DNA from: Patescibacteria group bacterium
GTDB lineage: Bacteria > Patescibacteriota > WWE3 > UBA101185 > 2-01-FULL-41-18
NCBI GenBank assembly: GCA_038064575.1
Contig: JBBTST010000003.1
Span: 6,751 to 70,750 of the forward strand
Length of the DNA: 64,000 bases
Direction of reading: 5' to 3'
The first letter of the stretch is position 1. Every line of letters starts with the position of its first letter. A model generated the notes under the pieces. It did not search any database. It was not told where the DNA came from and saw only the letters and a list, made by a program, of their open reading frames with translations. The position numbers were made by a program, and so were the translations under genes. This document shows positions 39,536 to 56,199 of the stretch, one piece after another.

Positions 39536-39633
39536 TAGAGTAGATTATACCATTGACTGCTTGACAGGCTTTTCTATTAATAAGATACTTTAACAGTAGT
39601 AATTCTTTCTGTTTAACTAAAAAGGAGGTGCAC

Positions 39634-39954
39634 ATGGCTTACGCTATTAATATTACGTCTAATAACCCGCTTTCCAACACGGGGATTAAAAGCTTGGCAG
39701 ATCTTTTTAATCTTATTATCAATATTGTAATGGGTATCGGCGTGGCGTTAACCGTCATCTTCTTGATACTTGGGGGTATCAAATATATTACAAGCCAGGG
39801 GGATCAAAAGAACACACAGCAAGCAAGGGAATGGTTAACTAACGCTGTCATTGGATTTATTGTTGTATTAGGAGCATTTGTTATAAGACAGGTTGTAGCA
39901 GGAGTACTCCAGGCAAATGTAAATGTTGCCGAGCAGTCTTTGCAACAAGAGTAG
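39634..39954 (+). CDS. VirB2/TrbC-like T4SS pilin-family protein (two TM hairpin)
   Basis: Two hydrophobic helices separated by the loop ITSQGDQKNTQQAREWLTNAV, which is shared with three paralogs. AGGAGG RBS 5 nt upstream. ATG 39634 chosen over the track GTG. Confidence 0.5.
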   Translation: MAYAINITSNNPLSNTGIKSLADLFNLIINIVMGIGVALTVIFLILGGIKYITSQGDQKNTQQAREWLTNAVIGFIVVLGAFVIRQVVAGVLQANVNVAEQSLQQE

Positions 39955-40059
39955 TTCTCCTAGATAAGAAATAATTAAGGCGCGGGTTAAACCCCGCGCT
40001 TTTTGGTTGGGGTTGGCGGTTGACGCACATACAATCTGCCATATATAGTTACTCCATAT

Positions 40060-40950
40060 ATGAGATATAAAATATCTGTTTTATCCTCACTTGCGTTCTT
40101 GACACTGACAATCATATTTATTGCACTTCCTTTGAGGGCATGGGCAGTTCATTGTTTAAATGCTTTGTCTTGCGACATAGAAGGAGATCTTATTACATGT
40201 GCAGACCCAACATCCGTTTGTCTCACAGATGCAACAAACCCTTGCGGAATTTGTGTTGAGTGTGTTGATAACACAACATGTGTATCCGGAACTTCATGTA
40301 ATCTCACAACTCACACCTGTGACTCTAATCCTTGTGTTGCAGATAATGAGATTTGTCTTACCGGAGATACTTGTTGTAGCAGCACGTTCTCTTGCCAAAC
40401 TGCACAAGTTGCCCCTCCAATAAAAAGGTGTATCAGTAATACCCCTCCCGTTTCCGATTGCTCAGGGGGGAACGTTGCCTGTGATTCTTCCGGTACGTGC
40501 AATAACTGCCTAAAACCTTGGGAATACACTTGTTCCAGTGCTAACAAATGCGTCAAAGAGAAAACATGGCGCTGTAATCCTAGTACTACTCCATGGAGTT
40601 GTGAAGAAGTTGATAGTAGCAGTTATTACGCCACGCAGGCTCTCTGTTCCGCAGCGTGTGTATATACACCGCCTGTAGGTCCCGGAGTGCTTGACCCCAG
40701 CGCCAACTTTCCTGAACCGGATAATCCACAGGGCTTGATATCTGCCATTATTATAATCTTAATGCCAATTGTTATAGTTCTTGGACTTCTAAGAGCTGCC
40801 CAGGGAGGTTTGATGATACTCACAAGTCAAGGTAACGAGCAGCAGCTAACAGAAGGGAAAGAGATAATAACCTCAGCCGTAGTAGGCATAATATTTGCGA
40901 TTACAGGGCTTGGTATCCTAAGGTTTGTTTTAAACACTTTTGCAAAGTAA
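40060..40950 (+). CDS. secreted cysteine-rich domain fused to C-terminal VirB2-like pilin module
   Basis: Signal peptide, then about 200 aa with roughly 36 Cys and many Thr/Ser. C-terminal 80 aa match the two-TM pilin pattern (LTSQGNEQQLTEGKEIITSAVVGI). Confidence 0.5.
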   Translation: MRYKISVLSSLAFLTLTIIFIALPLRAWAVHCLNALSCDIEGDLITCADPTSVCLTDATNPCGICVECVDNTTCVSGTSCNLTTHTCDSNPCVADNEICLTGDTCCSSTFSCQTAQVAPPIKRCISNTPPVSDCSGGNVACDSSGTCNNCLKPWEYTCSSANKCVKEKTWRCNPSTTPWSCEEVDSSSYYATQALCSAACVYTPPVGPGVLDPSANFPEPDNPQGLISAIIIILMPIVIVLGLLRAAQGGLMILTSQGNEQQLTEGKEIITSAVVGIIFAITGLGILRFVLNTFAK

Positions 40951-40998
40951 GACCCTTTATAGCCTAATGAAAACACATGTAGTATTATTCATAGCAGT

Positions 40999-41331
40999 AT
41001 GCCTTTTGATTTTGTAAATACTATTATTGATGATCCAAATGTAAATCCAACAGGAGGCGCTTTTTCAACTGTTAGTAGCTTTTTAAATCTAGCCCTTGGA
41101 GTTCTTATGGGAATCAGCATAGCCTTAGGAACTGTTGCCATAATACTTGCCGGCATTCAGTATATAATGAGTGAAGGGGATGCCAAGGCAATAGGCACTG
41201 CCAAACGCTATCTCACCACAGCAATTCTGGCAATAGTTGTAGCTCTGCTAGCGTTCACTTTCAAGCTGATTATATTAAACATTCTGGGATCTAGCAGTCC
41301 AGATCTTGAGAATAATGTGCCGGGATTTTAA
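40999..41331 (+). CDS. VirB2/TrbC-like pilin-family protein
   Basis: Two TM helices flanking the loop IMSEGDAKAIGTAKRYLTTAI. Paralog of 39634 and 41334. Confidence 0.5.
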   Translation: MPFDFVNTIIDDPNVNPTGGAFSTVSSFLNLALGVLMGISIALGTVAIILAGIQYIMSEGDAKAIGTAKRYLTTAILAIVVALLAFTFKLIILNILGSSSPDLENNVPGF

Positions 41332-41333
41332 AT

Positions 41334-41768
41334 ATGCAAATTTTTAGAAGTGGTGTCAAAAAATTAAGCCTAAACCTGTTTTTGCTCCTATTTCTTTTTT
41401 TGGTATCTCAAAGAAGTGCAAATGCGGCATGCGAAAACTTTGGAGAACCAACTAAAGATCAGCCGCTAGATCAATTAGTTAATTTAATGTGCCCTGTGTT
41501 AAAAGCTTTAGATATAATAATACTCTCATCGGGAGGCATATTTGTTGCCTTAATTTTAATAGCCTCCATTAAGCTAAGCCTTTCCCAAGGAGACGCCAAA
41601 GCAATAGATGGTGCAAAACAAACAATTACCTGGGCAACAATAGGTTTTGTTACGGTAATAGGTCTTTATGTGGGTCTTGGGATATTATTGGGATATTTTG
41701 GAGTAAGCCCCAATGCGCTCTCATTTAGCACAGCTATTCAGGGGGTAGTAACATGGTTAAATCAATAA
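41334..41768 (+). CDS. VirB2/TrbC-like pilin-family protein with signal peptide
   Basis: Signal peptide, then the two-TM hairpin with loop LSQGDAKAIDGAKQTITWAT. Confidence 0.5.
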   Translation: MQIFRSGVKKLSLNLFLLLFLFLVSQRSANAACENFGEPTKDQPLDQLVNLMCPVLKALDIIILSSGGIFVALILIASIKLSLSQGDAKAIDGAKQTITWATIGFVTVIGLYVGLGILLGYFGVSPNALSFSTAIQGVVTWLNQ

Positions 41769-44700
41769 CAAAAGTAGTCTTTGCAATACCAATAATTCTA
41801 GTCTTGACTTTTACTTCCGGTAAAAGCGCTTCTGCTGCGGTAGAAAAGTGGGGACCTAATCTCAAAGACTCTCCATCAATGATAGCTCCAGCAAGACAGG
41901 CATACTTGGGTTTGGGCGGGGATACAAATAACTGGGTTCCTTTTGAGATTATGATGTCCGCAGCAGGAATACCGGGAGATGTGGCGGGCACAAAACAGGC
42001 TATGCAGGAAATGTTGGACATTGCAAGAACCAATAAAATGATGCCTGTAGTCAGACTCACAACCAGACTCTGTTCAGGCGGGGTAAGTGGCTGGGAAAAA
42101 TTAACATTGGATTATGCAAGATATACTGCCCAAGCATTTAATTCTGTTGACGCTTCAGGATTTCCAGACACAATTCGCCTAGAGTGGGGAAACGAGGTAA
42201 ACCTTGGCAGGGAATGGGGAAACGAGATGCCAGACCCCGGCGAATATAGTAGCACCTACACATCATTCAAGGCACAACTTACAAACCCCAATATAAGCAC
42301 AATGCCTTCCTCAATAAATACATCCAACCCTGATGTCTTACCTCCTCAAGCTCCGGCAATGGATGCCATTAAATTTTATCAGGGTTTGTCAGGCACCACG
42401 GGTTCGGGACTTGCCTCACACCCTTATGAGACTGATGTGCCGGGTCCTGCTAGATACAGAATAACAGCTTGGGATTTTGATAATGACTATGCCAAAACAA
42501 CATCTCCTATAATTGTGAACGGTGGGGGTTTGTCACCTAATTTTGTGTATGGAGGCAGCAGGGTCAACTTTAATCAGCGCATTGACTACCTTAAAGCTTC
42601 TTTTCAAGGTAGTTCTTATTTGGGTGTACCCCCCTTAACCGGTGGTCCAGATGCAAAGTACCTCATGCCTGATCTTCAGGACGACCCAACGGCAGGTGGG
42701 GGAACCGATCAATTCCTTGTTATGGTGTATGGACCGGGGGGAACAACAACTCTTCCACTTGCAGGAGGAGGCTCCAGAGGAGGGGGTACATGCGAAGATA
42801 TTGAGGACACTAACACAGAGGTGCTTCCGGCGTGTACTCCAGAAGACCTTGAAATTGAGCCTGAAGAATTTACTCCAGCTACACTTAGGGGAACTGTAAC
42901 AAATTCTTATACAAACAATTTTGGAAAAAGAATAATTCCAAGTATGGCTACACCCCCACTAACAGGGGCTAAAATTGCTTGGGTAGAAACTTTTGCCAGA
43001 CCGGCCCCACCTCTTAAAAACCAATCCATCTGGGATGATCTTAACAAACCTGATGAGAATGAAGAAAAAAAGAAAAATGCTACATATAACTCAACAACCA
43101 TTCAAAATGTCAATGGCAAGTATCAATATGAACTTCAAATACCCAAAGACAAAACCTCCTACCTTATGGTTATCTGCGGAAACAAAGTGCTAGATGTATT
43201 TTCTGTTAACCCAAATGGAAACAGCAACGTTAAACTTGATTTAAGTTACGCTAAATTTATTGAGGGTTGCGGAGGAAGCAACGAGTGTTTAAGACTTAAA
43301 CCTGTAGGGGATGTGACAAAAGCGGGCTATTGTCCTTTTATATCAGGCACAGCTCCGGTAGCAGATGAGATGGTACCTGATAAAATAGTTCAAATCTCTC
43401 AGCAACTGGGAAAGTTTTCTCTAAGCTGCGTTAAAAACCTTTTGAGTTGTGTCAAAGTTGTCTGGGACACTACTTGGACTACACTAGGTGGTTTTGCAGG
43501 CTCACAAAAGCAAGATCAGGTCAAAGGTATAGCAAGAGATCATGCTTCTGACAAACAGGCTATAAGACAATCTTGGGGAGAAATTCCGTATGTAGATAAA
43601 GTAAGTTGTGAAGCTATAAAAGCCAACAATGAAAGGATGAGTCTAATTAGAAACATGCCTATAGGAGCAAATTTACTTGGCATGAGACCTGGTCTTTTGA
43701 CAGAAATTTGTATAAAAGCCAGAGAAAGGCAGGGGGCACTAATTGCTTGTCAAGGGACACCCCTATCAGGGATTTGCGCTCCGGGAGAGGTAGGTTGCAC
43801 AATGAAAGATTCAAAATACTTCCCGCTTTACATGTGCGCTTATGGCCTTGATGCCCCGGGGGTAATTTACAATGTGGCAGACTCCCCATTTGGAGCAATA
43901 AACTCCCCAGAGGGCGTTAGAGAACCAATAGTAGTTAATAACAACACGGGTAGCGTGAATCTGGAAAGCGATTACACTCCACACATCTGCGGTGGTCCGT
44001 ATCTGGACGAAGCTGATATAGGATGTTACGTAGGAGATCCCATCACAGAAAATAGAGACGATTGTCAAGGAGCCGCGTGCGACACACAGCCTACCGTTTA
44101 TGTTAGCGGACCAAACGGCGGAAACGCAGGCCCCGGCCCTGCCACATCCGTTGCAACCGTAGCAAGCATGTACACAAGACCCGGTGTGATTGGAGCAAAT
44201 GAGGCCGGAAAGATGATGAATATAGAGGATGCAGACCCAACACCTACCGCTGCACTTGATAGAACTATTTTTTCAGACAATCCTGTAAGAACATCCGCAT
44301 ATAGTGCTGTGATAAGGAGGTTAAAAATTCTGGGCAATGAGTGTCCATGTGATGGAGAACAGCTTAAGGTAAATAAGAAGTATGATGATGGTTTTGTTTG
44401 CACAAAGGGAGGATTAAGATTTAATATGATTATTGATTTTGGCGAGCTTATAGATGCTTTCTTAGCTAACTTATTGAAAGCTTTCAATGACTGTGCCCTG
44501 TTACCCACCCCAGAAGAAGTACAGGCTTGCCAAGATGCGGAGACAGAATATGAAGCATCGGCTGATTTGACTCCAACTTTTAAAGTGCCTTATGCGGCCC
44601 ATAAGGGAGCGCCTGCAGCAACAATTGCAGATGTAGTAAAAATGCCATATCACAAGCCTGTTCAAAAAATCGGTACTCTTGGTACGGTCAATACAGAGCT

Positions 44701-44848
44701 TGAAAGAAACAGAATCCCATGGACTGCCGCTTCCGGAGTTTCAGGGGAGGCTTTAAGAACCGGCGAGTTTGTGAGAAATATGTTTTGTATACCAAGAGAG
44801 GGAGTAAGTTGCGGGGTGGGAGGTCCGGGTATTGAAGAAACCCCCTAA
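41753..44848 (+). CDS. large secreted protein (1031 aa), possible N-terminal glycosidase-like domain
   Basis: Signal peptide (SASAA/VE). Translationally coupled to the upstream pilin gene by a 16-nt overlap. G/P/T-rich. LEWGNEVNLG resembles the GH-A NE(P) motif. Confidence 0.45.
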   Translation: MVKSITKVVFAIPIILVLTFTSGKSASAAVEKWGPNLKDSPSMIAPARQAYLGLGGDTNNWVPFEIMMSAAGIPGDVAGTKQAMQEMLDIARTNKMMPVVRLTTRLCSGGVSGWEKLTLDYARYTAQAFNSVDASGFPDTIRLEWGNEVNLGREWGNEMPDPGEYSSTYTSFKAQLTNPNISTMPSSINTSNPDVLPPQAPAMDAIKFYQGLSGTTGSGLASHPYETDVPGPARYRITAWDFDNDYAKTTSPIIVNGGGLSPNFVYGGSRVNFNQRIDYLKASFQGSSYLGVPPLTGGPDAKYLMPDLQDDPTAGGGTDQFLVMVYGPGGTTTLPLAGGGSRGGGTCEDIEDTNTEVLPACTPEDLEIEPEEFTPATLRGTVTNSYTNNFGKRIIPSMATPPLTGAKIAWVETFARPAPPLKNQSIWDDLNKPDENEEKKKNATYNSTTIQNVNGKYQYELQIPKDKTSYLMVICGNKVLDVFSVNPNGNSNVKLDLSYAKFIEGCGGSNECLRLKPVGDVTKAGYCPFISGTAPVADEMVPDKIVQISQQLGKFSLSCVKNLLSCVKVVWDTTWTTLGGFAGSQKQDQVKGIARDHASDKQAIRQSWGEIPYVDKVSCEAIKANNERMSLIRNMPIGANLLGMRPGLLTEICIKARERQGALIACQGTPLSGICAPGEVGCTMKDSKYFPLYMCAYGLDAPGVIYNVADSPFGAINSPEGVREPIVVNNNTGSVNLESDYTPHICGGPYLDEADIGCYVGDPITENRDDCQGAACDTQPTVYVSGPNGGNAGPGPATSVATVASMYTRPGVIGANEAGKMMNIEDADPTPTAALDRTIFSDNPVRTSAYSAVIRRLKILGNECPCDGEQLKVNKKYDDGFVCTKGGLRFNMIIDFGELIDAFLANLLKAFNDCALLPTPEEVQACQDAETEYEASADLTPTFKVPYAAHKGAPAATIADVVKMPYHKPVQKIGTLGTVNTELERNRIPWTAASGVSGEALRTGEFVRNMFCIPREGVSCGVGGPGIEETP

Positions 44849-44849
44849 G

Positions 44850-45800
44850 CTAATATTCTGAATAATAAATTTCTAAGACTTTGTTTCCAAAACCCTTGAT
44901 GCTAGCTTTTTTTGCAACATACGGAATAAGAACCCCATCTTTAGAATTCATAACATAAATCTTTGAAAAACCCGTCTCATCAAAGGCAACGTAACTTTTT
45001 GGAATACCTCCAAGATTAAAAAAAAGATCAAAGTAGTAAGGATCTAAAGGCGCGGAAGGTCTTAAGATATATGTTCCTTCTGAAAAAGCCCTGATGGTAT
45101 GAACAGAAATATAGGAAGGAAGAAAATTGGGGATAGTAACTATTGAAGCCCCACCTGATATTGGTGACCAAACTTGTATATTATTCATTCTGCTTATATT
45201 TGATACCGGATAACCCCCTAAAGAAATAAAGTATACAAACTCTTTGTGTGTTGGAGGAGAACAGTTCCCTTCAAATTCTTGCGCCACACAAATACCTTTT
45301 TCAGAAACTGGAATGGCTTGGAATTTCAAATTGTTTAGTATAGGCTCCTTTACCAATTTTGAATTCAAGAATGCTACATAACGAGTCACAAAAGCTGAGG
45401 GTGTGAGATTTGTGGTAAACCTACTCTCATAATCTCCACTGTTTTGTATTTCAACAATTCCTAAGTCTTTCTCAAGAAAAGGTAAAGAAGAAGACTCAAA
45501 AGTAAGAATGAAATTATCCTTGGAAAGCTTAGAAGCTTCCACTTCCCCAAGTACAAAAGTAAGCTCAGAACCTGTCTCATCAAAGCCGTCTATTCTGGTC
45601 CCTTTATATTTATCTATTGTAGCCTCAACAAAATTTTGCTGCTGAGTTAGTCTTTCCTGTGTGGGTTCATAGACTTCTTTGTATCGAGTCTGCTCTTGAT
45701 ACTGTGTAAAGAAAATGAAAGTTAGAACACAAAAGACCAATATGACACCAAGAATAATTAAAACCGTTTTATTTTTTAAAAATTGTGGCAACGCAGGCAT
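44850..45800 (-). CDS. bitopic membrane protein (316 aa), possible VirB8-like
   Basis: Single N-terminal TM and extracytoplasmic domain. Downstream of the M23 gene in the same operon. Confidence 0.35.
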   Translation of the reverse strand: MPALPQFLKNKTVLIILGVILVFCVLTFIFFTQYQEQTRYKEVYEPTQERLTQQQNFVEATIDKYKGTRIDGFDETGSELTFVLGEVEASKLSKDNFILTFESSSLPFLEKDLGIVEIQNSGDYESRFTTNLTPSAFVTRYVAFLNSKLVKEPILNNLKFQAIPVSEKGICVAQEFEGNCSPPTHKEFVYFISLGGYPVSNISRMNNIQVWSPISGGASIVTIPNFLPSYISVHTIRAFSEGTYILRPSAPLDPYYFDLFFNLGGIPKSYVAFDETGFSKIYVMNSKDGVLIPYVAKKASIKGFGNKVLEIYYSEY

Positions 45801-45817: not shown

Positions 45818-48655
45818 TCATAAATTTAGCGTAGTCGGGCAAGAACCACCGGTGTTAATGGCAGGGCAAGCGAAAGAAGTGGCACAGGGGTTAACCTGCT
45901 TTGTTCTATCATTACTTCCAGATCTAATCTCAAAGTGCAAATGCGGTCCGGAAGAATAACCCGTAGAATCCACCTGGCCCAAAGTAGTACCTTTAGTAAC
46001 AACACTACCAACAGGAACGCTAAAACTCTTAAGATGTGCAAAGTACATATAATAGGGTAGGGCTGTTCCACCTGATTGAGCCTGTATTACTATTAACTGT
46101 CCAAAATTCCCAGCAGAACTTGCAAATACAACCTTTGCATCTCCATCATAAGGGGAGAGTACAAATGCACCAGTGGGAGCTGCAAGATCTATACCACCAT
46201 GTTTCACACAAACGCCCCCCACAGTCCTATCTTCCCCAAAACAAGACCAAGTCTGTCCGCTACCTCCAGGAAACACTGTTCCGTTGGTCTTTGAAAAGGG
46301 TACAGGCTGATTGGTACCTGAGGTTGTAGCACTGCAGGCAATTGCTTCCCCTCCCGGAGCAGTACCTGGACCTAAGACAGGTGTAGAAGTACCTCCCAAA
46401 CACTGAGGGGTCTGGCTAAACCAACTTTCTGTTCCCCAAATACCCACCAAAAGCCAAGGATTAACATTTTTGGCTTTGGCAACCTGTAAAACCTGAAGTA
46501 ATTTACCGGGAGGTGGGGAGAAACCCGAATAACTTACATTTAGTATGTTCGTCATGTAATCAGCAAGCTCTTCAGGAGTTTTCCCAAAGGAATTGTCAGT
46601 TGTCCATTTAAGCTGAGCGTTAGGCACTTCACAATCTCTCAATGCCTCTCTATAGTAAGCAAATATCCCATTTACGGCAGGGTCGGGTACGGCGCAGGTG
46701 CCCCCATTAAAGCATCGGGGAGATGTACCTGTGCACCTGTAGCCTGCATCCAAAGGTCTTGCGGTTTCGGGCGGCGGGGTAGCACAGGACCTCCCGGCAG
46801 GAGTCCCTATAGCAACATATTTATCATAAAATTTCACAAAAAGGTTGTACGCAAAAGGCAAGTTCCTGGTTTCATTGTCACAATAAGGACCGTACTCATC
46901 AACTAACCTCCAAAGAGGTCCGCTTGTATCGCTAGACAAAGTTGCTGCAGCACAATTAAGAGACGATTCAAAATCCGTAACTCCGGAACCAAAGCAGTTA
47001 AAATCATTACAGCTTGGAGTTGGAAGTTCTGTGCCACCACCAACACCTCCCGCAGTTTCACCATAAGGCTGTGTGCCTCCAAGAGGGGCCAACACAGTGT
47101 TAACAATAAAATACAAAGCCAGTATTAAAACTACAACCGTGAAACCTGTAATTCCAGCCACAAACTTAAAGATATTTGCCATCTCTTTGCCAAGCTCATC
47201 AAGAGCCTTACCAAGATCAAGCTTCATTGTGTGCCAAATTATGTTCCAAGCTTTTTCCCCAACATAAATCAAGGCAGCTGTTATAGCAGCAGGAAGAGTT
47301 CCAACACCACTAGCACCTGCAGCGGTTAAAGCTGAACTTACAAGAGACCTGATAGCAATTTTAATTGCACCACCGCTAACAAGGTTGATAAGCCCAGAAG
47401 CTTTACCACTTAACACTTGTGCAAGAGCTCCCAAGGTTCCATCCAGACCCTTGGCTACCTTGTCCATTAACGTCTGAAGCATTTTATTAATAGGAGAATT
47501 TTTGTTTCCAATTAAAATTCTTAAGCCCCCCCTAACAGGGTCCTGAACAAAACTTGCAAACTTAAAAGCAGGAGTCAAAAACTTAATCTTTGTTTTAATT
47601 TTGCTCCACATATAGAGCTGGAAAAACTTTCCTTCAGCAACAGCGTCCAGAAGTTCGTTGTATTCAAAAACTTTCTTTCTGTAATCTAACATTTGTGCAA
47701 AAGCCACAAGACGATTATCTCCAAGAGTGTCTCCAAGATCCTTTGATCCCATTGCTCTCTTCCAAATGGAGTCTATATCTTCGTTTCCCCTAGATTCTAT
47801 TGAACTTCTTACCTTTTCCATCTCCCCTGCAGAAAGCTTGTTTCCATCCGCATCAGTGTCCTTAACAAAAATCTTCTCCCCATCAACAGATTTGTAAGCA
47901 CCTGTTGAAAAAACTCTATCTAAATCTCGTTTTAAGGCTGTGACTTCAGGGGAAGCAGTACGAGGGTCATAAGTTTCATCGAGTTGCCTTTTAAGGGCAA
48001 GAGCAAATCTGGTTTGAACTACGTTAAATTTAACACCCCTTTTATCTGCCGAATTTCCAAAAACAACAAAATCTCTAACAGAAGCTGCAAATCTATCTGA
48101 GGATTCAAAAGCACCTTGAGTCGTGACCCCATATAAATCTTTAAAAACTGATGAGTGAAGACTCAAGGCCTTCTGCTCTTTAGTTGCAGTTATCAGAGGA
48201 TTTAACATTGGGTCCCAAATACCTTTTAATTCGGCTTGGGCAGTTAAATCCTTAAAACCCATGACCGCTGTGAACCAATCCTGGGCGGTCTCAGCAACAA
48301 ATTCTTCTAAGCTTTTCTTCTTGAGCTTCTCTGGATCAAGATTCAAACCAATACCAGCAGCCCCTGGAAGCTCTGCGTATTCCTCTTCTACACTACCTAA
48401 TTCTCCGCTAGCTACTCTAGCACCGGCGTCTCTAATCTTACCTCTGATCACAAAAGAAGAAGCAACAAAATCTTTCTCAATTAGCTTTGTAAGAGTGCCA
48501 GGAAGACCCAGTGCAACAGAGTCAAAGGAAACTACAGATGCAAGTTCTCTTTGAAATTCATCAGATTCATATCTTTTGGGCCTACCCCCTCTTTTTTTCT
48601 TTTTAACAGGGCGGCTGCCTGGATAATACCCAGGATAAAAAATTGGCGCTGCCAT
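45818..48655 (-). CDS. membrane-spanning peptidoglycan hydrolase with C-terminal M23 peptidase domain
   Basis: C-terminal M23/LytM motifs HxxxD-like and GPHLHFEIR. Central TM (FVAGITGFTVVVLILALYFIV). Segment WLLVGIWGTESWF is reminiscent of lysozyme/transglycosylase active sites. About 500-aa cytoplasmic N-domain. Confidence 0.7.
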   Translation of the reverse strand: MAAPIFYPGYYPGSRPVKKKKRGGRPKRYESDEFQRELASVVSFDSVALGLPGTLTKLIEKDFVASSFVIRGKIRDAGARVASGELGSVEEEYAELPGAAGIGLNLDPEKLKKKSLEEFVAETAQDWFTAVMGFKDLTAQAELKGIWDPMLNPLITATKEQKALSLHSSVFKDLYGVTTQGAFESSDRFAASVRDFVVFGNSADKRGVKFNVVQTRFALALKRQLDETYDPRTASPEVTALKRDLDRVFSTGAYKSVDGEKIFVKDTDADGNKLSAGEMEKVRSSIESRGNEDIDSIWKRAMGSKDLGDTLGDNRLVAFAQMLDYRKKVFEYNELLDAVAEGKFFQLYMWSKIKTKIKFLTPAFKFASFVQDPVRGGLRILIGNKNSPINKMLQTLMDKVAKGLDGTLGALAQVLSGKASGLINLVSGGAIKIAIRSLVSSALTAAGASGVGTLPAAITAALIYVGEKAWNIIWHTMKLDLGKALDELGKEMANIFKFVAGITGFTVVVLILALYFIVNTVLAPLGGTQPYGETAGGVGGGTELPTPSCNDFNCFGSGVTDFESSLNCAAATLSSDTSGPLWRLVDEYGPYCDNETRNLPFAYNLFVKFYDKYVAIGTPAGRSCATPPPETARPLDAGYRCTGTSPRCFNGGTCAVPDPAVNGIFAYYREALRDCEVPNAQLKWTTDNSFGKTPEELADYMTNILNVSYSGFSPPPGKLLQVLQVAKAKNVNPWLLVGIWGTESWFSQTPQCLGGTSTPVLGPGTAPGGEAIACSATTSGTNQPVPFSKTNGTVFPGGSGQTWSCFGEDRTVGGVCVKHGGIDLAAPTGAFVLSPYDGDAKVVFASSAGNFGQLIVIQAQSGGTALPYYMYFAHLKSFSVPVGSVVTKGTTLGQVDSTGYSSGPHLHFEIRSGSNDRTKQVNPCATSFACPAINTGGSCPTTLNL

Positions 48656-48763: not shown

Positions 48764-50050
48764 ATGAATAAAAAAACAAGCTCAAATCAAACAGTTCTTC
48801 GTGCTATAAGTGTTATTTCTGCTCTGGTTCTTGTTTTTTCAACTCAAGTCAGAACCTCATACGCTGGTGGTAATTGGGTCTGGGATCAAGCAGTGGGTTT
48901 TGTGTTGGGAGATAAAAACGATTTGCAGACACTCGTTACCGGAACAGCCATCGGTGGCATTGCCGGGGCTGGTTATATATTAGTAACGGGGTGTACTTAT
49001 GACCAAATGATTGATAAAGCAAAAGGAGTAGCCTCAGAGTGTGATCCTACTCTTCAAATTGTAAACAGTAAATCAAGCATGTTAGCTTTTGCCGTAGGTG
49101 CTATGGACTCGGCAATTGAGGCACCTCCTGTAATGAATCTTGCATACTATTTTAATAGTATGAAGTCCGATTCGGTGTTATTTAGGCAAGCTTACGCTGC
49201 ACCTTCCCCAGCATTTCAGGCTGTTATTGATATGTGGAAAGCCATGAGGAATCTAGCTTATGGTCTTCTTGCCGCTTTTGTTTTAGTAGTAGCGTTTATG
49301 ATAACCATGCGTTCTAAAATAGATCCTCAAACGGTTGTAACTGCACAGTCTGCAATTCCCAGAATTGTGATAAGTGCCGTTCTAATAACAATATCTTATG
49401 CACTAGGTTCCTTGTTTGATCAGATGATAGGTAGGGGGTGGAATAGCCCCTTAGTTGGAGTTGCGTCCTGGTTAGCAGGTCCTGGGGGTGTTACAGGACA
49501 GGGAATAATTTATGTGATACAAGGGGTGTGGCCTCCTATATGCAGCAGTTACCAAGCAGGTAATCTGACTGGGGCAATGCAGTGTCTTCTGGCAATATTA
49601 GGAAACGTAAGTAATGCCGCTGTATCCGGTGGTCTCGGTCTTTTCATTCTGTTAGAAATAATATTGGCACTTGTTCTTCTGGTAATAATGCTTATTGTCT
49701 TCTTAACAAGTTATGTCAAAGTCATTGCAAGGACAATTATCTCCCCAATGATATTTGCTGTCGCGGCGATTCCAGGACAAGAACACAGAATAAAAGATTG
49801 GTTCAAAGACATGCTTGCGGACACGTTAGCCCTACCCGTAATAGTGTTTCTCATGGCTTTTGGACTGGTAATCTTTTTCAAGACGGCAGCCGCAGCTGCA
49901 GCAGATCCAAACACAAATGTGGCAGCAGGCTTTTTAAGCGATACTTTAGCTGTTGTTGCAGCACACATGATTCTTATGGCAACGTGGGTAATGGCTATAA
50001 AGGCCCCGGGATTGGTTAGAGCTGCAATTCAAGGACCAAAGACTAGATAA
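48764..50050 (+). CDS. VirB6/TrbL-like polytopic membrane protein
   Basis: Signal peptide, roughly 150-aa extracytoplasmic domain, then at least 5 TM helices and an Ala-rich tail. Position and architecture fit VirB6. Confidence 0.45.
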   Translation: MNKKTSSNQTVLRAISVISALVLVFSTQVRTSYAGGNWVWDQAVGFVLGDKNDLQTLVTGTAIGGIAGAGYILVTGCTYDQMIDKAKGVASECDPTLQIVNSKSSMLAFAVGAMDSAIEAPPVMNLAYYFNSMKSDSVLFRQAYAAPSPAFQAVIDMWKAMRNLAYGLLAAFVLVVAFMITMRSKIDPQTVVTAQSAIPRIVISAVLITISYALGSLFDQMIGRGWNSPLVGVASWLAGPGGVTGQGIIYVIQGVWPPICSSYQAGNLTGAMQCLLAILGNVSNAAVSGGLGLFILLEIILALVLLVIMLIVFLTSYVKVIARTIISPMIFAVAAIPGQEHRIKDWFKDMLADTLALPVIVFLMAFGLVIFFKTAAAAAADPNTNVAAGFLSDTLAVVAAHMILMATWVMAIKAPGLVRAAIQGPKTR

Positions 50051-50655: not shown

Positions 50656-53328
50656 ATGCCCTTAAAAGAAACTAGCGGACTATCTAATAAACAACACGCA
50701 GTACCACAAAACATAATGCAGGTGGAGTTCAAGATAATAGGGGACTTGACCATGCGCCAGTTCTTTTACCTGCTTATTGCAGCTATTTTTGCCTTTGGAG
50801 CTATCAAAAGTGGGCTTCCTTCCTATGTTGCCTGGCCCCTTGGCATTGTGGCAGCCCTTGCCGGCGTAGCCATAGCTTTTGTCCCTATTCAAGATAGAGG
50901 AATGGATCAATGGGTAGCTTTTTTCTTCCAGGCAATTTACCAACCAACCCTGAGGGTCTGGAGAAAAGAAACACTTATCCCACAATATTTTCTATATCAA
51001 AGCGCGGCATTGCTTAAATCTGAAATGTTAACAATAGCCCCAACGGCAAGCAGAAGAAAACTGGAGGAGTATCTTGAAAGAGCTTCTGGCGATCTTAAGA
51101 AAAAAGATTATCTTGATGAAAAAGAAGAGGAGTATATCAAAAAAGTAAGGGCTGCTTTTGAACCCTCTTTAGCTAATGCTAGACCCACTACACCTCAAAC
51201 CATACTTAACACTCAAGCAACAGCCGTTACGGCACCACCCCAAGTAACAACTCAATTCAGACCACAAAGTTTACCTCAGACACACCCAAGCGTTAGAAGC
51301 ATCCCTATTACGCCCACTATAGCACCCTCACCTAAAATACCTATATACCAGGCACCTAAGTTCACACCACCTTCACCACAACCCTCTATCCCACAGGCTC
51401 CCAAACCTCAAGAGGTTAATAAAGCTTCAGGGGCTCAGGAGAAAGTAGCACAACAGCCTCAGCAGCAGAGCGTGCCTCAAGCTAGTCAAAAACCACCCTC
51501 ACCAAAAGTGCAAACCCCTGAAGTCTTAAAGCTTCCGGATGTTAAAAAGGAGGAAGTAAAAATAATAACTCCAAAAACTTTAGACGCTTTAACCGTTTCA
51601 ACCCCCCCGCAAACTTTTGTTAAACCCCCTGTTCAGATGCAAACGCAGCAGCAACCACAACCTAAACAAGTTGTGGCCAAACCATTCGAACCCCCACAAG
51701 TTATAGAACCAAAAGTAATAGAAGTAGCAAAAGAAGTTGGGAGGGAAGAAGCTCCTATCTTTGTGGATATAACTCCCAAGAGTGAGGAAAAACCGGAAGT
51801 GGTGGAAAACATAATTGAGCAGGATAAGGCAAACCTTGTCAGGACAGAACTCGCACCCGGTAAAGAATCCACACCCAAAGAGCCCCCAGCACCAGCGCTA
51901 GCACCCGCACCCGCACCGTTCACGTCTGGCCCACTAACTCAAGAAAAAGCGTCTCTAACACAGTCTGAAACCGTTGCAATCCCAGCTAAAGAACCAATTC
52001 AGGAACCAAAAGTTCAGGAACAAAAAAAAGAGGAGCCCCATGAACAGGAGCAGGAACAGGAACAAGAAAGAGCGGAAATAATCAAGCCTTCAAGATCCCA
52101 GCTGAGGCAAAACTTTCCAATTACAGCAAGAATTGGTTCTTTTAAACCAAAGTCTCAGGGCACCACCTTAACCCCTGCCGGCATTACAGGCAGAAGATTT
52201 ACAAACCTGACTCCAACCCAGGGTGAGATTGTTTTACCAATCAGAGGAGAAAGAATTTTAAGAATGTCAGGCGAGCCCGAACCTCCTAAAAGCCAGGAAG
52301 ACATGAAAAGAAAGGAAAAATTAGACCAACTCAACGCTTTGGTTGAAAAACTGAAAGTAGATCAAAAAAGCAGTGCTTCCCAGGCAAGACTTTCAATACC
52401 CCCGCTTAATATATCTGCTCTGACACAGCAAGATCAAAAGAAAGAAGAAAAAATAGAGGTTGGGAACCCGTTTAAAGAAGTGGCTGTTACAGAAGTAGAA
52501 AAGAAAACTGCAGAGGGAGTAGGAGTACCTGCTCAACAAACCCCCCCGCAAACCTCTCAAACACCAAAAAAAGGCAGCATGTACCTGCCGCCGGAAAGAC
52601 TTATGTGGACAGGTCCGGAACCAACAGCTTCTCTCAAAAAAGAGGTTCCAAAAGATGAAAAAGTTGAAATAAAATATGATATCCCCGGCAAAAAAGCAAC
52701 AGATGAAGAAATAGAAAAGCACCTGATTGAAGCAGATTCCAAACTAACTAAGGAGATTGAAGCGCTAAACATGAGCATGAAAGATTCGTCAAAAACGGAG
52801 GCTGAAAGAAAAGCCATCCAGGATCAAATAAAACGTGTAGAAACGGAAAGAGTTGAAGCGCAAAAAGTGATAACAGGCCTTGAAACCAAAGTTAAAGAGC
52901 TTGAACAAAAACTCACAGAAACCACCTCTCCACAAGTTGTTGTTCAAAAAGTGGTGGAAAAAGTACAAGTACCTGTAATTCATGACAGCAAAGAAGATAC
53001 GCAACTCAAACAGCCTAAGGCTCCAGTGCTAGCCAAAGTTCCTACAATAACAACTCTGCCTAATTCAATAAACGGGGTTGTAAAAGACAACAACGGCAAA
53101 CTTGTGGAAGGCGCAGTAGTTATGATTAAAGATCCAAGAGGAGACGTTGTCAGAGCGCTAAGAACCAACAAACTGGGCCAATTCTTCATCACAACTGCAG
53201 TAGCAAACGGTAGTTACATAGTTGAGGTTTCATTTGAGAAAGATAATATTGCCTTAAACTTTGATTCTTCCCTGATACAAACCAAAGGAGAGGTATTACC
53301 TCCAATTGAATTTACTGGTAAGATTTGA
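50656..53328 (+). CDS. VirB3/PrgI-like two-TM N-domain fused to Pro/Gln-rich linker, coiled-coil and C-terminal CarboxypepD_reg-like domain
   Basis: N-terminal 110 aa with two TM helices (MRQFFYLLIAAIFAFGAI…VAWPLGIVAALAGVAIAF). Roughly 400-aa P/Q/A-rich low-complexity region. C-terminal beta-sandwich motif (GVVKDNNGKLVEGAVVMIKDPRGD…). Confidence 0.45.
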   Translation: MPLKETSGLSNKQHAVPQNIMQVEFKIIGDLTMRQFFYLLIAAIFAFGAIKSGLPSYVAWPLGIVAALAGVAIAFVPIQDRGMDQWVAFFFQAIYQPTLRVWRKETLIPQYFLYQSAALLKSEMLTIAPTASRRKLEEYLERASGDLKKKDYLDEKEEEYIKKVRAAFEPSLANARPTTPQTILNTQATAVTAPPQVTTQFRPQSLPQTHPSVRSIPITPTIAPSPKIPIYQAPKFTPPSPQPSIPQAPKPQEVNKASGAQEKVAQQPQQQSVPQASQKPPSPKVQTPEVLKLPDVKKEEVKIITPKTLDALTVSTPPQTFVKPPVQMQTQQQPQPKQVVAKPFEPPQVIEPKVIEVAKEVGREEAPIFVDITPKSEEKPEVVENIIEQDKANLVRTELAPGKESTPKEPPAPALAPAPAPFTSGPLTQEKASLTQSETVAIPAKEPIQEPKVQEQKKEEPHEQEQEQEQERAEIIKPSRSQLRQNFPITARIGSFKPKSQGTTLTPAGITGRRFTNLTPTQGEIVLPIRGERILRMSGEPEPPKSQEDMKRKEKLDQLNALVEKLKVDQKSSASQARLSIPPLNISALTQQDQKKEEKIEVGNPFKEVAVTEVEKKTAEGVGVPAQQTPPQTSQTPKKGSMYLPPERLMWTGPEPTASLKKEVPKDEKVEIKYDIPGKKATDEEIEKHLIEADSKLTKEIEALNMSMKDSSKTEAERKAIQDQIKRVETERVEAQKVITGLETKVKELEQKLTETTSPQVVVQKVVEKVQVPVIHDSKEDTQLKQPKAPVLAKVPTITTLPNSINGVVKDNNGKLVEGAVVMIKDPRGDVVRALRTNKLGQFFITTAVANGSYIVEVSFEKDNIALNFDSSLIQTKGEVLPPIEFTGKI

Positions 53329-53335
53329 GTAATCT

Positions 53336-54037
53336 ATGGAAGACATTAAATTCACAACACAAGAGCATCTTGATATTGAGACCATAACAAACGACCTTGT
53401 AGTTTTGAAAAACGGTGCTGCAGTCCTTATTATCAGAACCAATGCCGTAAATTTTGATCTGTTATCTGAGATTGAACAGGATGCAATTATTGCAGCTTTT
53501 TCAGGCCTTCTAAACTCTCTAAACTTTCCGGTTCAGATAATTGTCAGAAGCAAAAAGCTAGACATTACCAATTATCTTGAAAAAGTTAAGGCTATAGAAA
53601 ACAGAATCAAGGACCCTCTTCTTAAAGTTCAGGCGGAGGCCTACAGAAAATTTGTGCAGGAGCTAATCAAAAGAAATGAGGTTTTGGATAAGAGTTTCTA
53701 TGTGTCCATTCCTTCGGGAGGCACAGCTTCTACACCAACAGGCAGTCCTTTTGACTTCCTCTCAGCGCTAACGGGTACAAAAAAAGCCACCAAAAGAGTG
53801 AATGTTGACGTGCCAAAACTGCTTAAAACGGCAACAAATGAACTTTACCCCAAAAGAGACACTCTAACTAGGGAGTTTGCAAGGATTAACATTAAAGCAA
53901 AACAATTAACAACTCAGGAGCTAGTGGAACTGTTTTTTGATATTTATAATCCGGTTTCCCTGCATGATCAAAGAATGAGAACAAACGCGGATGATTACAG
54001 AATTCCAATAGTAGAACCTGCAATACTTGAAGAGTAG
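53336..54037 (+). CDS. hypothetical cytoplasmic protein co-transcribed with VirB4
   Basis: 233 aa with no TM. Lies 18 nt upstream of virB4. Confidence 0.4.
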   Translation: MEDIKFTTQEHLDIETITNDLVVLKNGAAVLIIRTNAVNFDLLSEIEQDAIIAAFSGLLNSLNFPVQIIVRSKKLDITNYLEKVKAIENRIKDPLLKVQAEAYRKFVQELIKRNEVLDKSFYVSIPSGGTASTPTGSPFDFLSALTGTKKATKRVNVDVPKLLKTATNELYPKRDTLTREFARINIKAKQLTTQELVELFFDIYNPVSLHDQRMRTNADDYRIPIVEPAILEE

Positions 54038-54054: not shown

Positions 54055-56199
54055 ATGAAATTACCATTTGGCAACAAAAAAAAACAAGCACAACAACTCC
54101 ATGAAATGACCGCCGCAGAAAAGCTTTCTCAGGGCATGGTCTCAATAAGAGACATTATTGCCCCCTCAGCTATTGAAATAGATTTTTCTTATATTAGGAT
54201 TGGAAACACATATTATAGAACTTTATTTATTTCAGGCTACCCCAGATTTGTTGGGGCGGACTGGCTTTCTCCTCTTATTAATTTTGATAAGACTCTTGAT
54301 ATTGCAATGTTTTATTATCCCGTCCAATCCAAGGGCATTCTTGATGATCTCAGAAGAAAGATTGCGGAAATGGAGGCCACAATAAAGGCTGATACAGAAA
54401 AAGGCAAAGTTGTAGACCCTGCCGTTACGGCAGCCTTAGAAGATGCTCGCTCCTTACAGGAGCAACTGGTGAAAGGCATAGAACGCTTTTTTCAATTTTC
54501 CTTTTATATCACAATTCCTGCAGAAACTTTGGAAGAGCTTGAGACCATCACAAAAAAGGTTGAGTCCACTCTTGGGGCCCTGCTTTTAATTTCTAAACAA
54601 GCCTCTCTTCAAATGGAACAGGGCTTTCAGTCCACCATACCAACCTGCCTGGACAAGCTTCTTGTAACAAGAAATATGGACACAACAAGTATTGCCACAA
54701 CCTTCCCGTTTACTTCCTCTGACCTTACTTCAAATGAGGGAATAATGTATGGAGTAAATATGCACAACGGGTCCCTAATAATTTTTGATAGGTTTTCTTT
54801 GGAAAACGCTAACATGGTAGTCTTTGCAAAAGCAGGAGCCGGAAAATCTTTTTTTGTAAAACTTGAGGCACTTAGATCTTTGGTTTTTGGAGCGGAGATT
54901 ATAGTAATTGATCCTGAAGAGGAGTACAGAAGATTAAGTGATGCTGTTGGCGGTAATTACATAGCATTCTCACCCTCCTCCCCTTCAAGAATTAATCCGT
55001 TTGACCTTTCTGGAATTGCGGTGGAGGGGGAGAACGAGCTCGGTCAAAAAATCCTCTCCCTACACACCCTTTTTAAAATAATTTTTGGTTCCCTAACAAG
55101 CACTGAGGAGTCTGTGTTAGATAAAGCCTTGATAGAAACATATAGAATTAAGGGCATTACAACGGAACCAACCACCCAAAGAGACAAAGAGCCACCCATA
55201 ATGGAAGATTTATATAAAGTGCTGCTTGGCACTGAAGAACCGGAAGCCAAATCTTTATCCGGAAGACTGGAAAGATACATAAAAGGCTCCTTGGCCGGAA
55301 TTTTTGACCAAAAATCAAACATAGATTTAACCGGAAGATTTACAGTATTTTCCACAAAAAGCCTTGAAGATGTGTTAAGACCTCTTGCCATTTACATTCT
55401 GCTTGATTTTATCTGGACAAGAATCAAAAGAGATCTTAAAAAAAGAATCCTCATTGTTGATGAGGCCTGGTACCTGATGCAAAACAAAGACTCAGCAACT
55501 TTTATGTTTGGCATTGCAAAAAGATGCAGAAAATACTATCTGGGGCTTACCACAATAACACAGGACGTACAGGACTTTTTATCAAGTGAGTACGGCACCG
55601 CAATCATTACAAACTCTTCCATTCAAGTTCTTCTTAAACAACACCCGGCAGCAATAGACAGACTCGCTGAAGTTTTTTATCTTTCTGAGGGGGAAAAGAG
55701 GCTTTTGCTTTCAGCAGGTGTTGGGGAGGGGCTCTTTTTTGCGGGGAGTAATCACGTAGCAATGAAGGTGGAGGCTTCTGATGAGGAGCACAAACTTATA
55801 ACCACCAATCCGCAAGAGTTATTAAGGCTCAGGGAGAAAGGCACGCTCAAGGCAGATACTGGACCCTCCAAGAATATCTACAAACCAACACCAAGCTTTG
55901 ATAACAAACCAAAACAGGCAACAGTTGGAACAACGGGGTTGCCATCGGTCAACAATCCCAATATCAGCTCAATAAAACCTCCTCAGCCCGGTCTGGCACA
56001 GCCTCAAGCCGGAGATACTTCCCCAAACCAGGGGGCAGGCTTGGCTCTTCCTGATGATCCTTACATTCCTACTAAATCAACTAAGATTGAGGTCCCCGAA
56101 GTAGACACCAGCAGTCCCGCGCCAAAATTTGGTCAAACAGAAAATCCGGAGCAAAAACAGCCGGAAGACAGTGATGAAAAAGTAACAGAAATATTTTAG
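54055..56199 (+). CDS. virB4: VirB4/TrbE/TraC-family type IV secretion ATPase
   Basis: Walker A FAKAGAGKSFF and Walker B/DEAW motif ILIVDEAWYLM. 714 aa. Acidic C-terminal tail. Confidence 0.85.
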   Translation: MKLPFGNKKKQAQQLHEMTAAEKLSQGMVSIRDIIAPSAIEIDFSYIRIGNTYYRTLFISGYPRFVGADWLSPLINFDKTLDIAMFYYPVQSKGILDDLRRKIAEMEATIKADTEKGKVVDPAVTAALEDARSLQEQLVKGIERFFQFSFYITIPAETLEELETITKKVESTLGALLLISKQASLQMEQGFQSTIPTCLDKLLVTRNMDTTSIATTFPFTSSDLTSNEGIMYGVNMHNGSLIIFDRFSLENANMVVFAKAGAGKSFFVKLEALRSLVFGAEIIVIDPEEEYRRLSDAVGGNYIAFSPSSPSRINPFDLSGIAVEGENELGQKILSLHTLFKIIFGSLTSTEESVLDKALIETYRIKGITTEPTTQRDKEPPIMEDLYKVLLGTEEPEAKSLSGRLERYIKGSLAGIFDQKSNIDLTGRFTVFSTKSLEDVLRPLAIYILLDFIWTRIKRDLKKRILIVDEAWYLMQNKDSATFMFGIAKRCRKYYLGLTTITQDVQDFLSSEYGTAIITNSSIQVLLKQHPAAIDRLAEVFYLSEGEKRLLLSAGVGEGLFFAGSNHVAMKVEASDEEHKLITTNPQELLRLREKGTLKADTGPSKNIYKPTPSFDNKPKQATVGTTGLPSVNNPNISSIKPPQPGLAQPQAGDTSPNQGAGLALPDDPYIPTKSTKIEVPEVDTSSPAPKFGQTENPEQKQPEDSDEKVTEIF

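Follow-up and report, generated by a model that had tools for sequence, protein, structure and literature searches.

A membrane-anchored M23 protein encoded among type IV secretion genes in Patescibacteria: a putative wall hydrolase with two undescribed domains

Introduction

What is a large M23-family protein doing among genes for a type IV secretion system (T4SS) on a Patescibacteria chromosome? The question is raised by a 64-kb stretch of contig JBBTST010000003.1, from a Patescibacteria group bacterium, which we refer to as the window. The contig comes from the 0.1-um fraction of a groundwater sample (record Hain_H41_01um, ENA ERZ1292619). The window encodes a protein of 945 amino acids, hereafter the M23 protein (Table 1), and NCBI holds an identical product, MEK7595255.1, under the name [quoted passage not shown]. 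The gene call in ENA (P0001) gives just 877 amino acids. We judged that call to be truncated because no other motif of the family is as conserved as the first 13 residues of the longer product (MAAPIFYPGYYPG).

We propose that this protein is probably a membrane-anchored peptidoglycan hydrolase of the chromosomal T4SS of a WWE3-related Patescibacteria bacterium, and hence a functional analogue of VirB1 and PrgK. A helper function of the VirB1/PrgK type is already known. What is new here are two domain families that are in no database: the cytoplasmic N-terminal domain (N-domain) and a Cys-rich extracellular domain that we call MID.

Results and discussion

The M23 domain has a complete active site

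An earlier note on this DNA, made from the sequence alone, had pointed to a clear M23 signature, GPHLHFEIR, at the C terminus. The signature is indeed present, at residues 903-911, and Pfam's Peptidase_M23 (PF01551) matches residues 818-917 with E=3.1e-21 (75.8 bits, with a cut-off of 28.7 bits). The note had left open whether the HxxxD and HxH motifs are complete; all of their residues are there, and they align with their counterparts in 9gy1 and 3slu. The full set of zinc ligands and catalytic residues is H819-G-G-I-D823, H874, and H905-L-H907, where H874 is presumably the third catalytic His of LytM. The domain has the beta-sheet fold of M23, and close members of the family also retain HxxxD, HxH, and the third His. 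The M23 domain of the window protein is thus catalytically complete as judged by its sequence, and it is predicted to cleave the peptide bridges of peptidoglycan.

The hydrolase part is predicted to lie outside the cell

The earlier note had also proposed a large cytoplasmic N-domain, a single transmembrane (TM) helix, and extracellular hydrolase domains. This layout is supported by hydrophobicity, by flanking charges, and by the distribution of Cys across 28 homologues. Each of the 28 has one strong hydrophobic peak, and 25 of them are enriched in Lys and Arg on the N-terminal flank of the TM helix. The window protein has no Cys in residues 1-545 and 16 Cys in residues 546-945, with a Cys baseline for the window of 1.0%. 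In the 28 homologues taken together, the part that precedes the TM helix (21,052 residues) contains 6 Cys, and the part that follows it (7,413 residues) contains 211, which is a roughly 100-fold asymmetry. Because of the Cys asymmetry and the flanking charges, we assign an orientation with the N terminus inside and the C terminus outside; the hydrolase domains would therefore be extracellular. In other words, an extracytoplasmic location of the hydrolase part is predicted from three independent features: the TM helix, the positive-inside bias, and the Cys asymmetry.

Upstream of the TM helix is a Gly/Ala-rich amphipathic helix that is conserved in the homologues (Table 1). It has a weak hydrophobic peak of 1.49 and overlaps a Gly/Ala-rich stretch (residues 408-466) of weaker hydrophobicity, and a helix is predicted at residues 453-477.

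The near-exclusion of Cys from the N-domain, in the window protein as in homologues P0002-P0066, recalls substrates that pass unfolded through narrow export channels, although this is just an analogy. Low Cys content is also seen among the neighboring proteins: the PrgI fusion (890 amino acids) and the TrsD-like protein have no Cys, and VirB4 has two.

The N-domain defines a small family

Residues 1-800 have no match in Pfam, in NCBIfam, or among PDB sequences. In a word-indexed homologue search, queries with the full-length protein or the N-domain retrieved no other protein than the window protein, and a query with MID retrieved nothing. We then ran an exhaustive HMMER search with residues 1-800 against 1.84 billion representatives and found 68 hits in total. 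These hits split into two unrelated groups: group N, which matches the N-domain, and group MID. Among the 68 hits, the window protein is the only one that combines the two domains.

Group N contains about 35 proteins of 800-1300 amino acids, which share the N-domain, the Gly/Ala helix that precedes the membrane, and the TM helix. The named members are from candidate division WWE3, and wherever a source names the organism, the group is restricted to the Candidate Phyla Radiation (CPR). The N-domain, of about 490 amino acids, defines a small family found only in CPR bacteria.

According to the earlier note, the N-domain has no recognizable motif. There is indeed no database match, but the family has motifs of its own. 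The extreme N terminus of group N reads (M)x1-4-P-F-Y-P-G-Y-Y-P-G and is followed by a basic or GG(R/K) stretch. In an alignment of 23 members (A4), G13 is invariant, and G9, Y10, Y11, and P12 are nearly so. The motif is doubled in three members (P0047, P0054, and P0057).

The extracellular heads of group N vary. Among 28 members, Pfam recognizes M23 in 10, CHAP in 2, and NlpC/P60 in 1. Thirteen members have a divergent M23-like head (HGxxxYW...YGxAxD...H...HVHIE); a profile of this head matched only M23-type chains in PDB, and the matches were weak (E of 0.14-0.9). Four members (P0047, P0051, P0057, and P0062) end in a domain of about 230-360 amino acids that Pfam does not recognize and that contains HExxH (e.g., FAHETGHVYNN), which suggests a zincin-type head.

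In P0003 (1050 amino acids; locus L003, 9998-13150), the place of MID between the TM helix and M23 is taken by a different insert, which is Cys-rich and unannotated. This insert has its own Glu motif, AIALAIWIEETGASNY.

MID is a rare extracellular domain with an invariant glutamate

The earlier note had suspected a second muralytic domain upstream of M23, around WLLVGIWGTESWF (residues 734-746). The segment turned out to lie in a conserved domain, MID, but no match to SLT_2 or GH73 rises above threshold, so the enzymatic label is unproven.

Among the 68 HMMER hits are 32 full-length copies of MID. In these relatives, the domain is usually at the C terminus of secreted proteins of 800-2300 amino acids that also contain GH5, M23, or CBM60. 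An alignment (A2) has 12 invariant positions: C549, N550, F562, G589, C592, N604, C641, C675, N732, P733, W740, and E743. A structural model built from 23 sequences (pLDDT of 86.6 and pTM of 0.84) consists mainly of helices plus a tiny hairpin. This confident model had no significant fold match among PDB and BFVD structures.

E743 is invariant in the 23 sequences, where it is within the motif W(G/A)TE(S/T), and it ends helix 193-204 of the model. MID thus has a conserved, candidate catalytic glutamate at the end of a helix. The likeness to SLT_2 (PF13406, MltB-type) and to GH73 (PF01832, FlgJ-type) lies in this last helix, A..NINP..L.G.W(G/A)TES.FGQ. SLT_2 had sub-threshold matches in 5 of 23 relatives (best E=0.0013, 18.5 bits with a cut-off of 24.3 bits), and Glucosaminidase had sub-threshold matches in 6 of 23 (best E=0.0047). 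These matches span about 25-60 residues around the invariant Glu (positions 47-105 of the SLT_2 profile). The same two profiles gave zero hits against the window sequence. In an hhalign comparison of MID with FlgJ from E. coli, E743 falls on the Glu of "ALESGWGQ", but the match covers 24 columns at 4% probability and is at the level of a motif only.

Two relatives, P0027 (residues 1634-1834) and P0039 (1639-1832), are natural circular permutants, in which the half with the Glu motif comes before the half with CNxFNC. The order is a segment equivalent to 594-747, a joint of 4-5 residues, and a segment equivalent to 549-597. Since such permutants exist, the two ends of MID are adjacent in the fold. 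We considered if MID might itself be a permuted SLT_2 or GH73 domain. Rotated sequences gave no hit in PDB, and the matches to SLT_2 end where the junction begins instead of crossing it, so this identity is unsupported at the sequence level.

We conclude that MID is a real, rare, and previously undescribed extracellular domain. The motif around its conserved Glu resembles the catalytic helix of lysozyme-like enzymes, and we treat "lysozyme-like" as a plausible lead. MID is a candidate glycan-cleaving or glycan-binding module.

The gene is a conserved part of a T4SS neighborhood

The gene for the M23 protein is a member of a T4SS cluster: it lies between an array of pilin genes on one side and genes for a polytopic membrane protein, a PrgI fusion, a TrsD-like protein, and VirB4 on the other (Table 1). 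The next gene downstream encodes a bitopic protein of 316 amino acids and is probably co-transcribed with it. The polytopic protein is VirB6-like, by its position and topology only. Beyond VirB4 are dnaN, jag, yidC, rnpA, and dnaA, so this is a chromosomal cluster near the origin.

To look for this arrangement elsewhere, we scanned one genome per species with a narrow N-terminal alignment and found two loci. L002 is from a WWE3 metagenome-assembled genome (MAG) and encodes P0002, which is 39% identical to the window protein; L003 is from a MAG labelled Saccharibacteria and encodes P0003 (36% identity). Both loci mirror the window: one strand encodes, in this order, yidC-jag-dnaN, VirB4, the TrsD-like protein, the PrgI fusion, and the polytopic protein. 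On the other strand are the M23 gene and a gene for a protein of 318-321 amino acids that is orthologous to the 316-residue protein and in the equivalent position; beyond them are a large protein and pilins.

More distant members of the family are P0047 (with a HExxH head) and P0054 (with a CHAP head). Their loci, L006 and L008, have a divergent open reading frame (ORF) in the position of the polytopic protein, a pilin array, and a SpoIID gene, and they also keep a small ORF downstream of the hydrolase gene. In L002 (E=1e-84) and L006 (E=3e-29), homologues of the polytopic partner are encoded divergently from the hydrolase gene, and an ORF of similar size is in this position in L003 and L008. 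Because the synteny recurs in L002, L003, L006, and L008, we view the hydrolase gene as a conserved component of the T4SS/pilin neighborhood and not as a chance neighbor.

We found no relaxase, coupling protein, or integrase in the window. We also considered if the cluster might have originated from a mobile element and rejected this: besides the lack of those three genes in the window, housekeeping genes flank the cluster, and the locus adjoins dnaN in other genomes as well.

The PrgI fusion is also found in L002 (555 amino acids) and L003 (718 amino acids), while PrgI from pCF10 has just 117 amino acids.

Table 1. Features of the M23 protein and of its surroundings (positions are in the window unless a locus is named; topology is predicted)
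Feature	Position	Strand	Residues or size	Remarks
Hydrolase gene	45818..48655	-	945 aa	ATG start; bitopic: cytoplasmic N-domain, TM helix, extracellular Cys-rich domain, M23 peptidase
Cytoplasmic N-domain	47168..48655	-	1-496	All alpha-helical; no Cys; no database match
N-terminal motif FYPGYYPG	48617..48640	-	6-13	Followed by basic stretch KKKKRGGRPKR (18-28)
Gly/Ala-rich amphipathic helix	47246..47317	-	447-470	GASGVGTLPAAITAALIYVGEKAW; before TM helix
Single TM helix	47081..47173	-	~495-525	Kyte-Doolittle peak 2.54
MID domain	46394..47020	-	546-754	~210 aa; Cys-rich; extracellular; unannotated fold
MID motif	46418..46468	-	730-746	NVNPWLLVGIWGTESWF; invariant Glu743 ends last MID helix
M23 (LytM-type) zinc endopeptidase domain	45881..46255	-	~801-925	H819xxxD823, H874, H905xH907
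Bitopic membrane protein	44850..45800	-	316 aa	Downstream of hydrolase gene; 17-nt gap with GAAGGA ribosome-binding site
Polytopic membrane protein	48764..50050	+	428 aa	Divergent to hydrolase gene; ~six hydrophobic regions; no Pfam hit
PrgI(VirB3) fusion	50656-53328	+	890 aa	PrgI E=5e-9; long extension ending in CarboxypepD_reg-like domain
TrsD-like protein	53336-54037	+		TraC_F_IV, weak
VirB4 ATPase	54055-56199	+		TraG P-loop E=3.5e-29; CagE_TrbE_VirB
VirB2-like T4SS pilin array	39628..41768	+	four genes	PF18895 T4SS_pilin E=8e-12 for 39628-39954; other three weaker
Large Cys-rich pilin-like protein	40060-40950	+	296 aa	Weak C-terminal T4SS_pilin match; 26 Cys (8.8%)
Large protein between pilin array and hydrolase operon	41753-44848	+	1031 aa	26 Cys; no Pfam match
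SpoIID-domain protein and unannotated protein	36178-39535; L006 17474-20768; L008 10488-13796	- (window)	602-626 aa and 482-499 aa	Adjoin pilin array
tmRNA gene	32602-32991	-		Predicted tag VDNEYVDAPALVGAFV
Fic/DOC-domain protein	31246-32361	+		E=2e-12; adjoins tmRNA gene

Comparison with known T4SS hydrolases

The earlier note had compared the protein to T4SS-associated wall hydrolases such as VirB1 and PrgK. The comparison holds for the gene context and for a PrgK-like layout, but not for homology to PrgK outside M23/LytM. PrgK, from pCF10 of E. faecalis, is a VirB1 homologue of the "DELTA" class of Gram-positive T4SS hydrolases. Its N-domain is intracellular, its TM helix is at residues 254-274, and its LytM, SLT, and CHAP domains are extracellular (PMC11323569), so PrgK shares with the window protein the order of inside N-domain, TM helix, and extracellular hydrolase. 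All known VirB1 homologues of Gram-positive bacteria are membrane-anchored with their enzymatic domains outside the cell (PMC12857230). The orientation that the earlier note called an unusual inside-out topology is therefore the usual one. The real differences from the PrgK-type layout are in the size and the conservation of the cytoplasmic domain: it has about 490 residues, or twice the ~250 of PrgK, and it is conserved, with its own N-terminal motif. Also, the M23 domain of the window protein is catalytically complete, while the LytM domain of PrgK is degenerate and regulatory (PMC11323569). Mixed sets of SLT/muramidase, LytM, and CHAP domains occur in the Gram-positive VirB1 homologues (PMC12857230); in the window protein, Pfam finds no CHAP and no recognizable SLT/muramidase domain.

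The gene order resembles that of PrgK-PrgL in pCF10 as well, as the window gene is likewise near PrgI and VirB4 and is followed by the gene for a small bitopic protein. We considered if that 316-residue protein is a homologue of PrgL/VirB8, but it has no similarity to PrgL or to any PDB chain.

Two published studies describe T4SSs of Patescibacteria. According to Quinonero-Coronel et al. 2025 (PMC12102498), these systems are related to the monoderm MPF_FATA class, are chromosomal and near the origin, and have pilin arrays; they usually lack a relaxase, and a recognizable VirB1 is rarely near virB4. The cluster in the window resembles the published ones in its site near the origin, in its VirB2-like pilin array, PrgI/VirB3, TrsD-like protein, and VirB4, and in the lack of a nearby relaxase or coupling protein. 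The epibiotic growth of S. epibionticum requires the T4SS cluster SEML1_0006-0019, which is thought not to be conjugative (Wang et al. 2023, PMC10633639). Its Tables S1/S2 list SEML1_0006, with two lysozyme-like domains and a cysteine-proteinase domain, and SEML1_0007, an essential protein of 1113 amino acids that adjoins VirB4 and has a C-terminal DD-peptidase fold (residues 951-1105). By its description in that source, SEML1_0007 has the same overall layout as distant members of group N. The parts of PMC12102498 and PMC10633639 covered here do not describe the N-domain family, its N-terminal motif, or MID.

M23 domains are also present in phage tail lysins and tape-measure proteins: gp13 of phi29 combines a lysozyme with M23, and tape-measure proteins can have M23 at the C terminus. 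We rejected a tape-measure identity for the window protein, as the PHROG matches are to M23 alone and the locus is a T4SS and not a prophage. Only two further PHROG matches, both weak and probably compositional, fall elsewhere, on helical or hydrophobic parts in two homologues.

A proposed role and its alternatives

If the protein is a T4SS hydrolase, then its cytoplasmic N-domain might dock the enzyme to a part of the machine in the inner membrane, either the polytopic VirB6-like partner or VirB4/TrsD. The N-terminal FYPGYYPG motif, together with the basic stretch after it, is our candidate for the docking element. Outside the cell, the M23 domain would cut peptide cross-links, and MID would bind or cleave the glycan strand via Glu743. 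A local gap in the wall might then let the pilus or channel pass. This could be the wall of the cell itself or of a host bacterium, and interchangeable heads would fit either target.

Several observations weigh against this proposal. No VirB4 gene lies within 10 kb of the hydrolase gene in L006 or L008; because of this, we see the tightest association with the pilin/polytopic-membrane module and not with the ATPase. When we compared the family alignment (A1) to PrgK with hhalign, the only match was 20 columns in the LytM region, at 0.3% probability. Also, the window protein does not have a recognized SLT or lysozyme domain, which most VirB1 homologues do. The topology is a prediction, and the weakly hydrophobic stretch at 408-466 could be embedded in the membrane. 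Finally, the docking role of the N-domain is conjecture, and the hydrolase role is deduced from sequence and gene context.

The variable heads could instead point to a weapon against the host: the heads would be tuned to the chemistry of the host's wall and would breach it for feeding or for insertion of the pilus, while the N-domain would only anchor and regulate them. A constant N-domain with M23, M23-like, CHAP or NlpC/P60, or HExxH heads fits this idea, and so do the large secreted proteins with GH5, M23, or CBM60 in which MID is otherwise found and the essential, apparently non-conjugative T4SS of S. epibionticum (PMC10633639). However, domain variation is also seen in ordinary VirB1 homologues of Gram-positive bacteria (PMC12857230), and we did not identify any immunity-like gene. 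Furthermore, the extracellular part is tethered by the TM helix and has short linkers and about 420 residues in all, so its reach into another cell is uncertain. This explanation, which we think is unlikely, largely overlaps with a T4SS hydrolase and differs only in which wall is the target.

More distinct is the possibility of an M23 endopeptidase for housekeeping, involved in wall remodelling or division like ShyA, MepM, EnvC, or SpoIIQ, that merely happens to be beside T4SS genes. The best (partial) matches in NCBIfam are indeed to MepM, Pgp3, DipM, and ShyA, a gene with a SpoIID domain is nearby, and the locus is chromosomal and among housekeeping genes. But these NCBIfam scores are far below the cut-offs of the families (e.g., 49 versus 341 bits), and swapping of heads to CHAP, NlpC/P60, or HExxH is atypical of division factors. 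The N-domain family is also tiny and, wherever the organism is named, restricted to CPR. The synteny leads us to disfavor a housekeeping role, which we consider very unlikely: two other genomes keep the full T4SS gene order although their proteins are just 36-39% identical, and two more keep the gene paired with the polytopic protein and the pilin array. The active site, in turn, argues against a structural or adhesive subunit of the T4SS, in which the hydrolase-like domains would attach to peptidoglycan but not cleave it, a role suggested for LytM and CHAP in PrgK. Such a subunit has precedents, both in the degenerate, regulatory LytM domain of PrgK and in the inactive VirB1 homologues that have been proposed to be adhesins (PMC12857230), and MID does not have a proven catalytic fold. 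Yet the M23 domains of the window protein and its close family, unlike LytM of PrgK, keep HxxxD, HxH, and the third His. Because the active site is intact, we give a non-catalytic adhesin or scaffold very little credence.

A bolder form of the T4SS-hydrolase proposal is also conceivable, if doubtful. The N-domain family might be an undescribed core part of the T4SS, the "missing VirB1", resembling a polymorphic effector: a constant, Cys-free module in the cytoplasm, whose FYPGYYPG motif would serve in docking or recognition, would bear exchangeable wall-degrading heads matched to the host's wall. MID might be a new, naturally circularly permutable glycosidase fold built from the catalytic helix of the lysozyme-like type.

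Other features of the window

Within the pilin array, the protein of 296 amino acids is far bigger and more Cys-rich than the three adjacent pilins of about 110-144 amino acids. The 1031-residue protein that comes after the array may belong to the cell surface or the pilus tip, and L002 and L003 have ORFs of 632-677 amino acids in its position. A SpoIID-domain protein and an unannotated protein are encoded beside the pilin array in three loci (the window, L006, and L008), and this pair may add another wall-remodelling element to the neighborhood.

The tag predicted for the tmRNA lacks the usual ...LAA ending. In both L006 and L008, smpB is close to the homologous hydrolase gene.

Implications

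In the sole genetically tractable member of the Patescibacteria, the T4SS is essential for epibiotic growth. The family that we describe is a concrete candidate for the VirB1-type function, for which surveys usually report no recognizable protein beside virB4. Some of its features may be of use for studying these systems: an intact M23 active site, a candidate docking motif, and heads that could report on specificity for the host wall. Both the N-domain and MID, with its natural circular permutants, could enter the domain databases as families.

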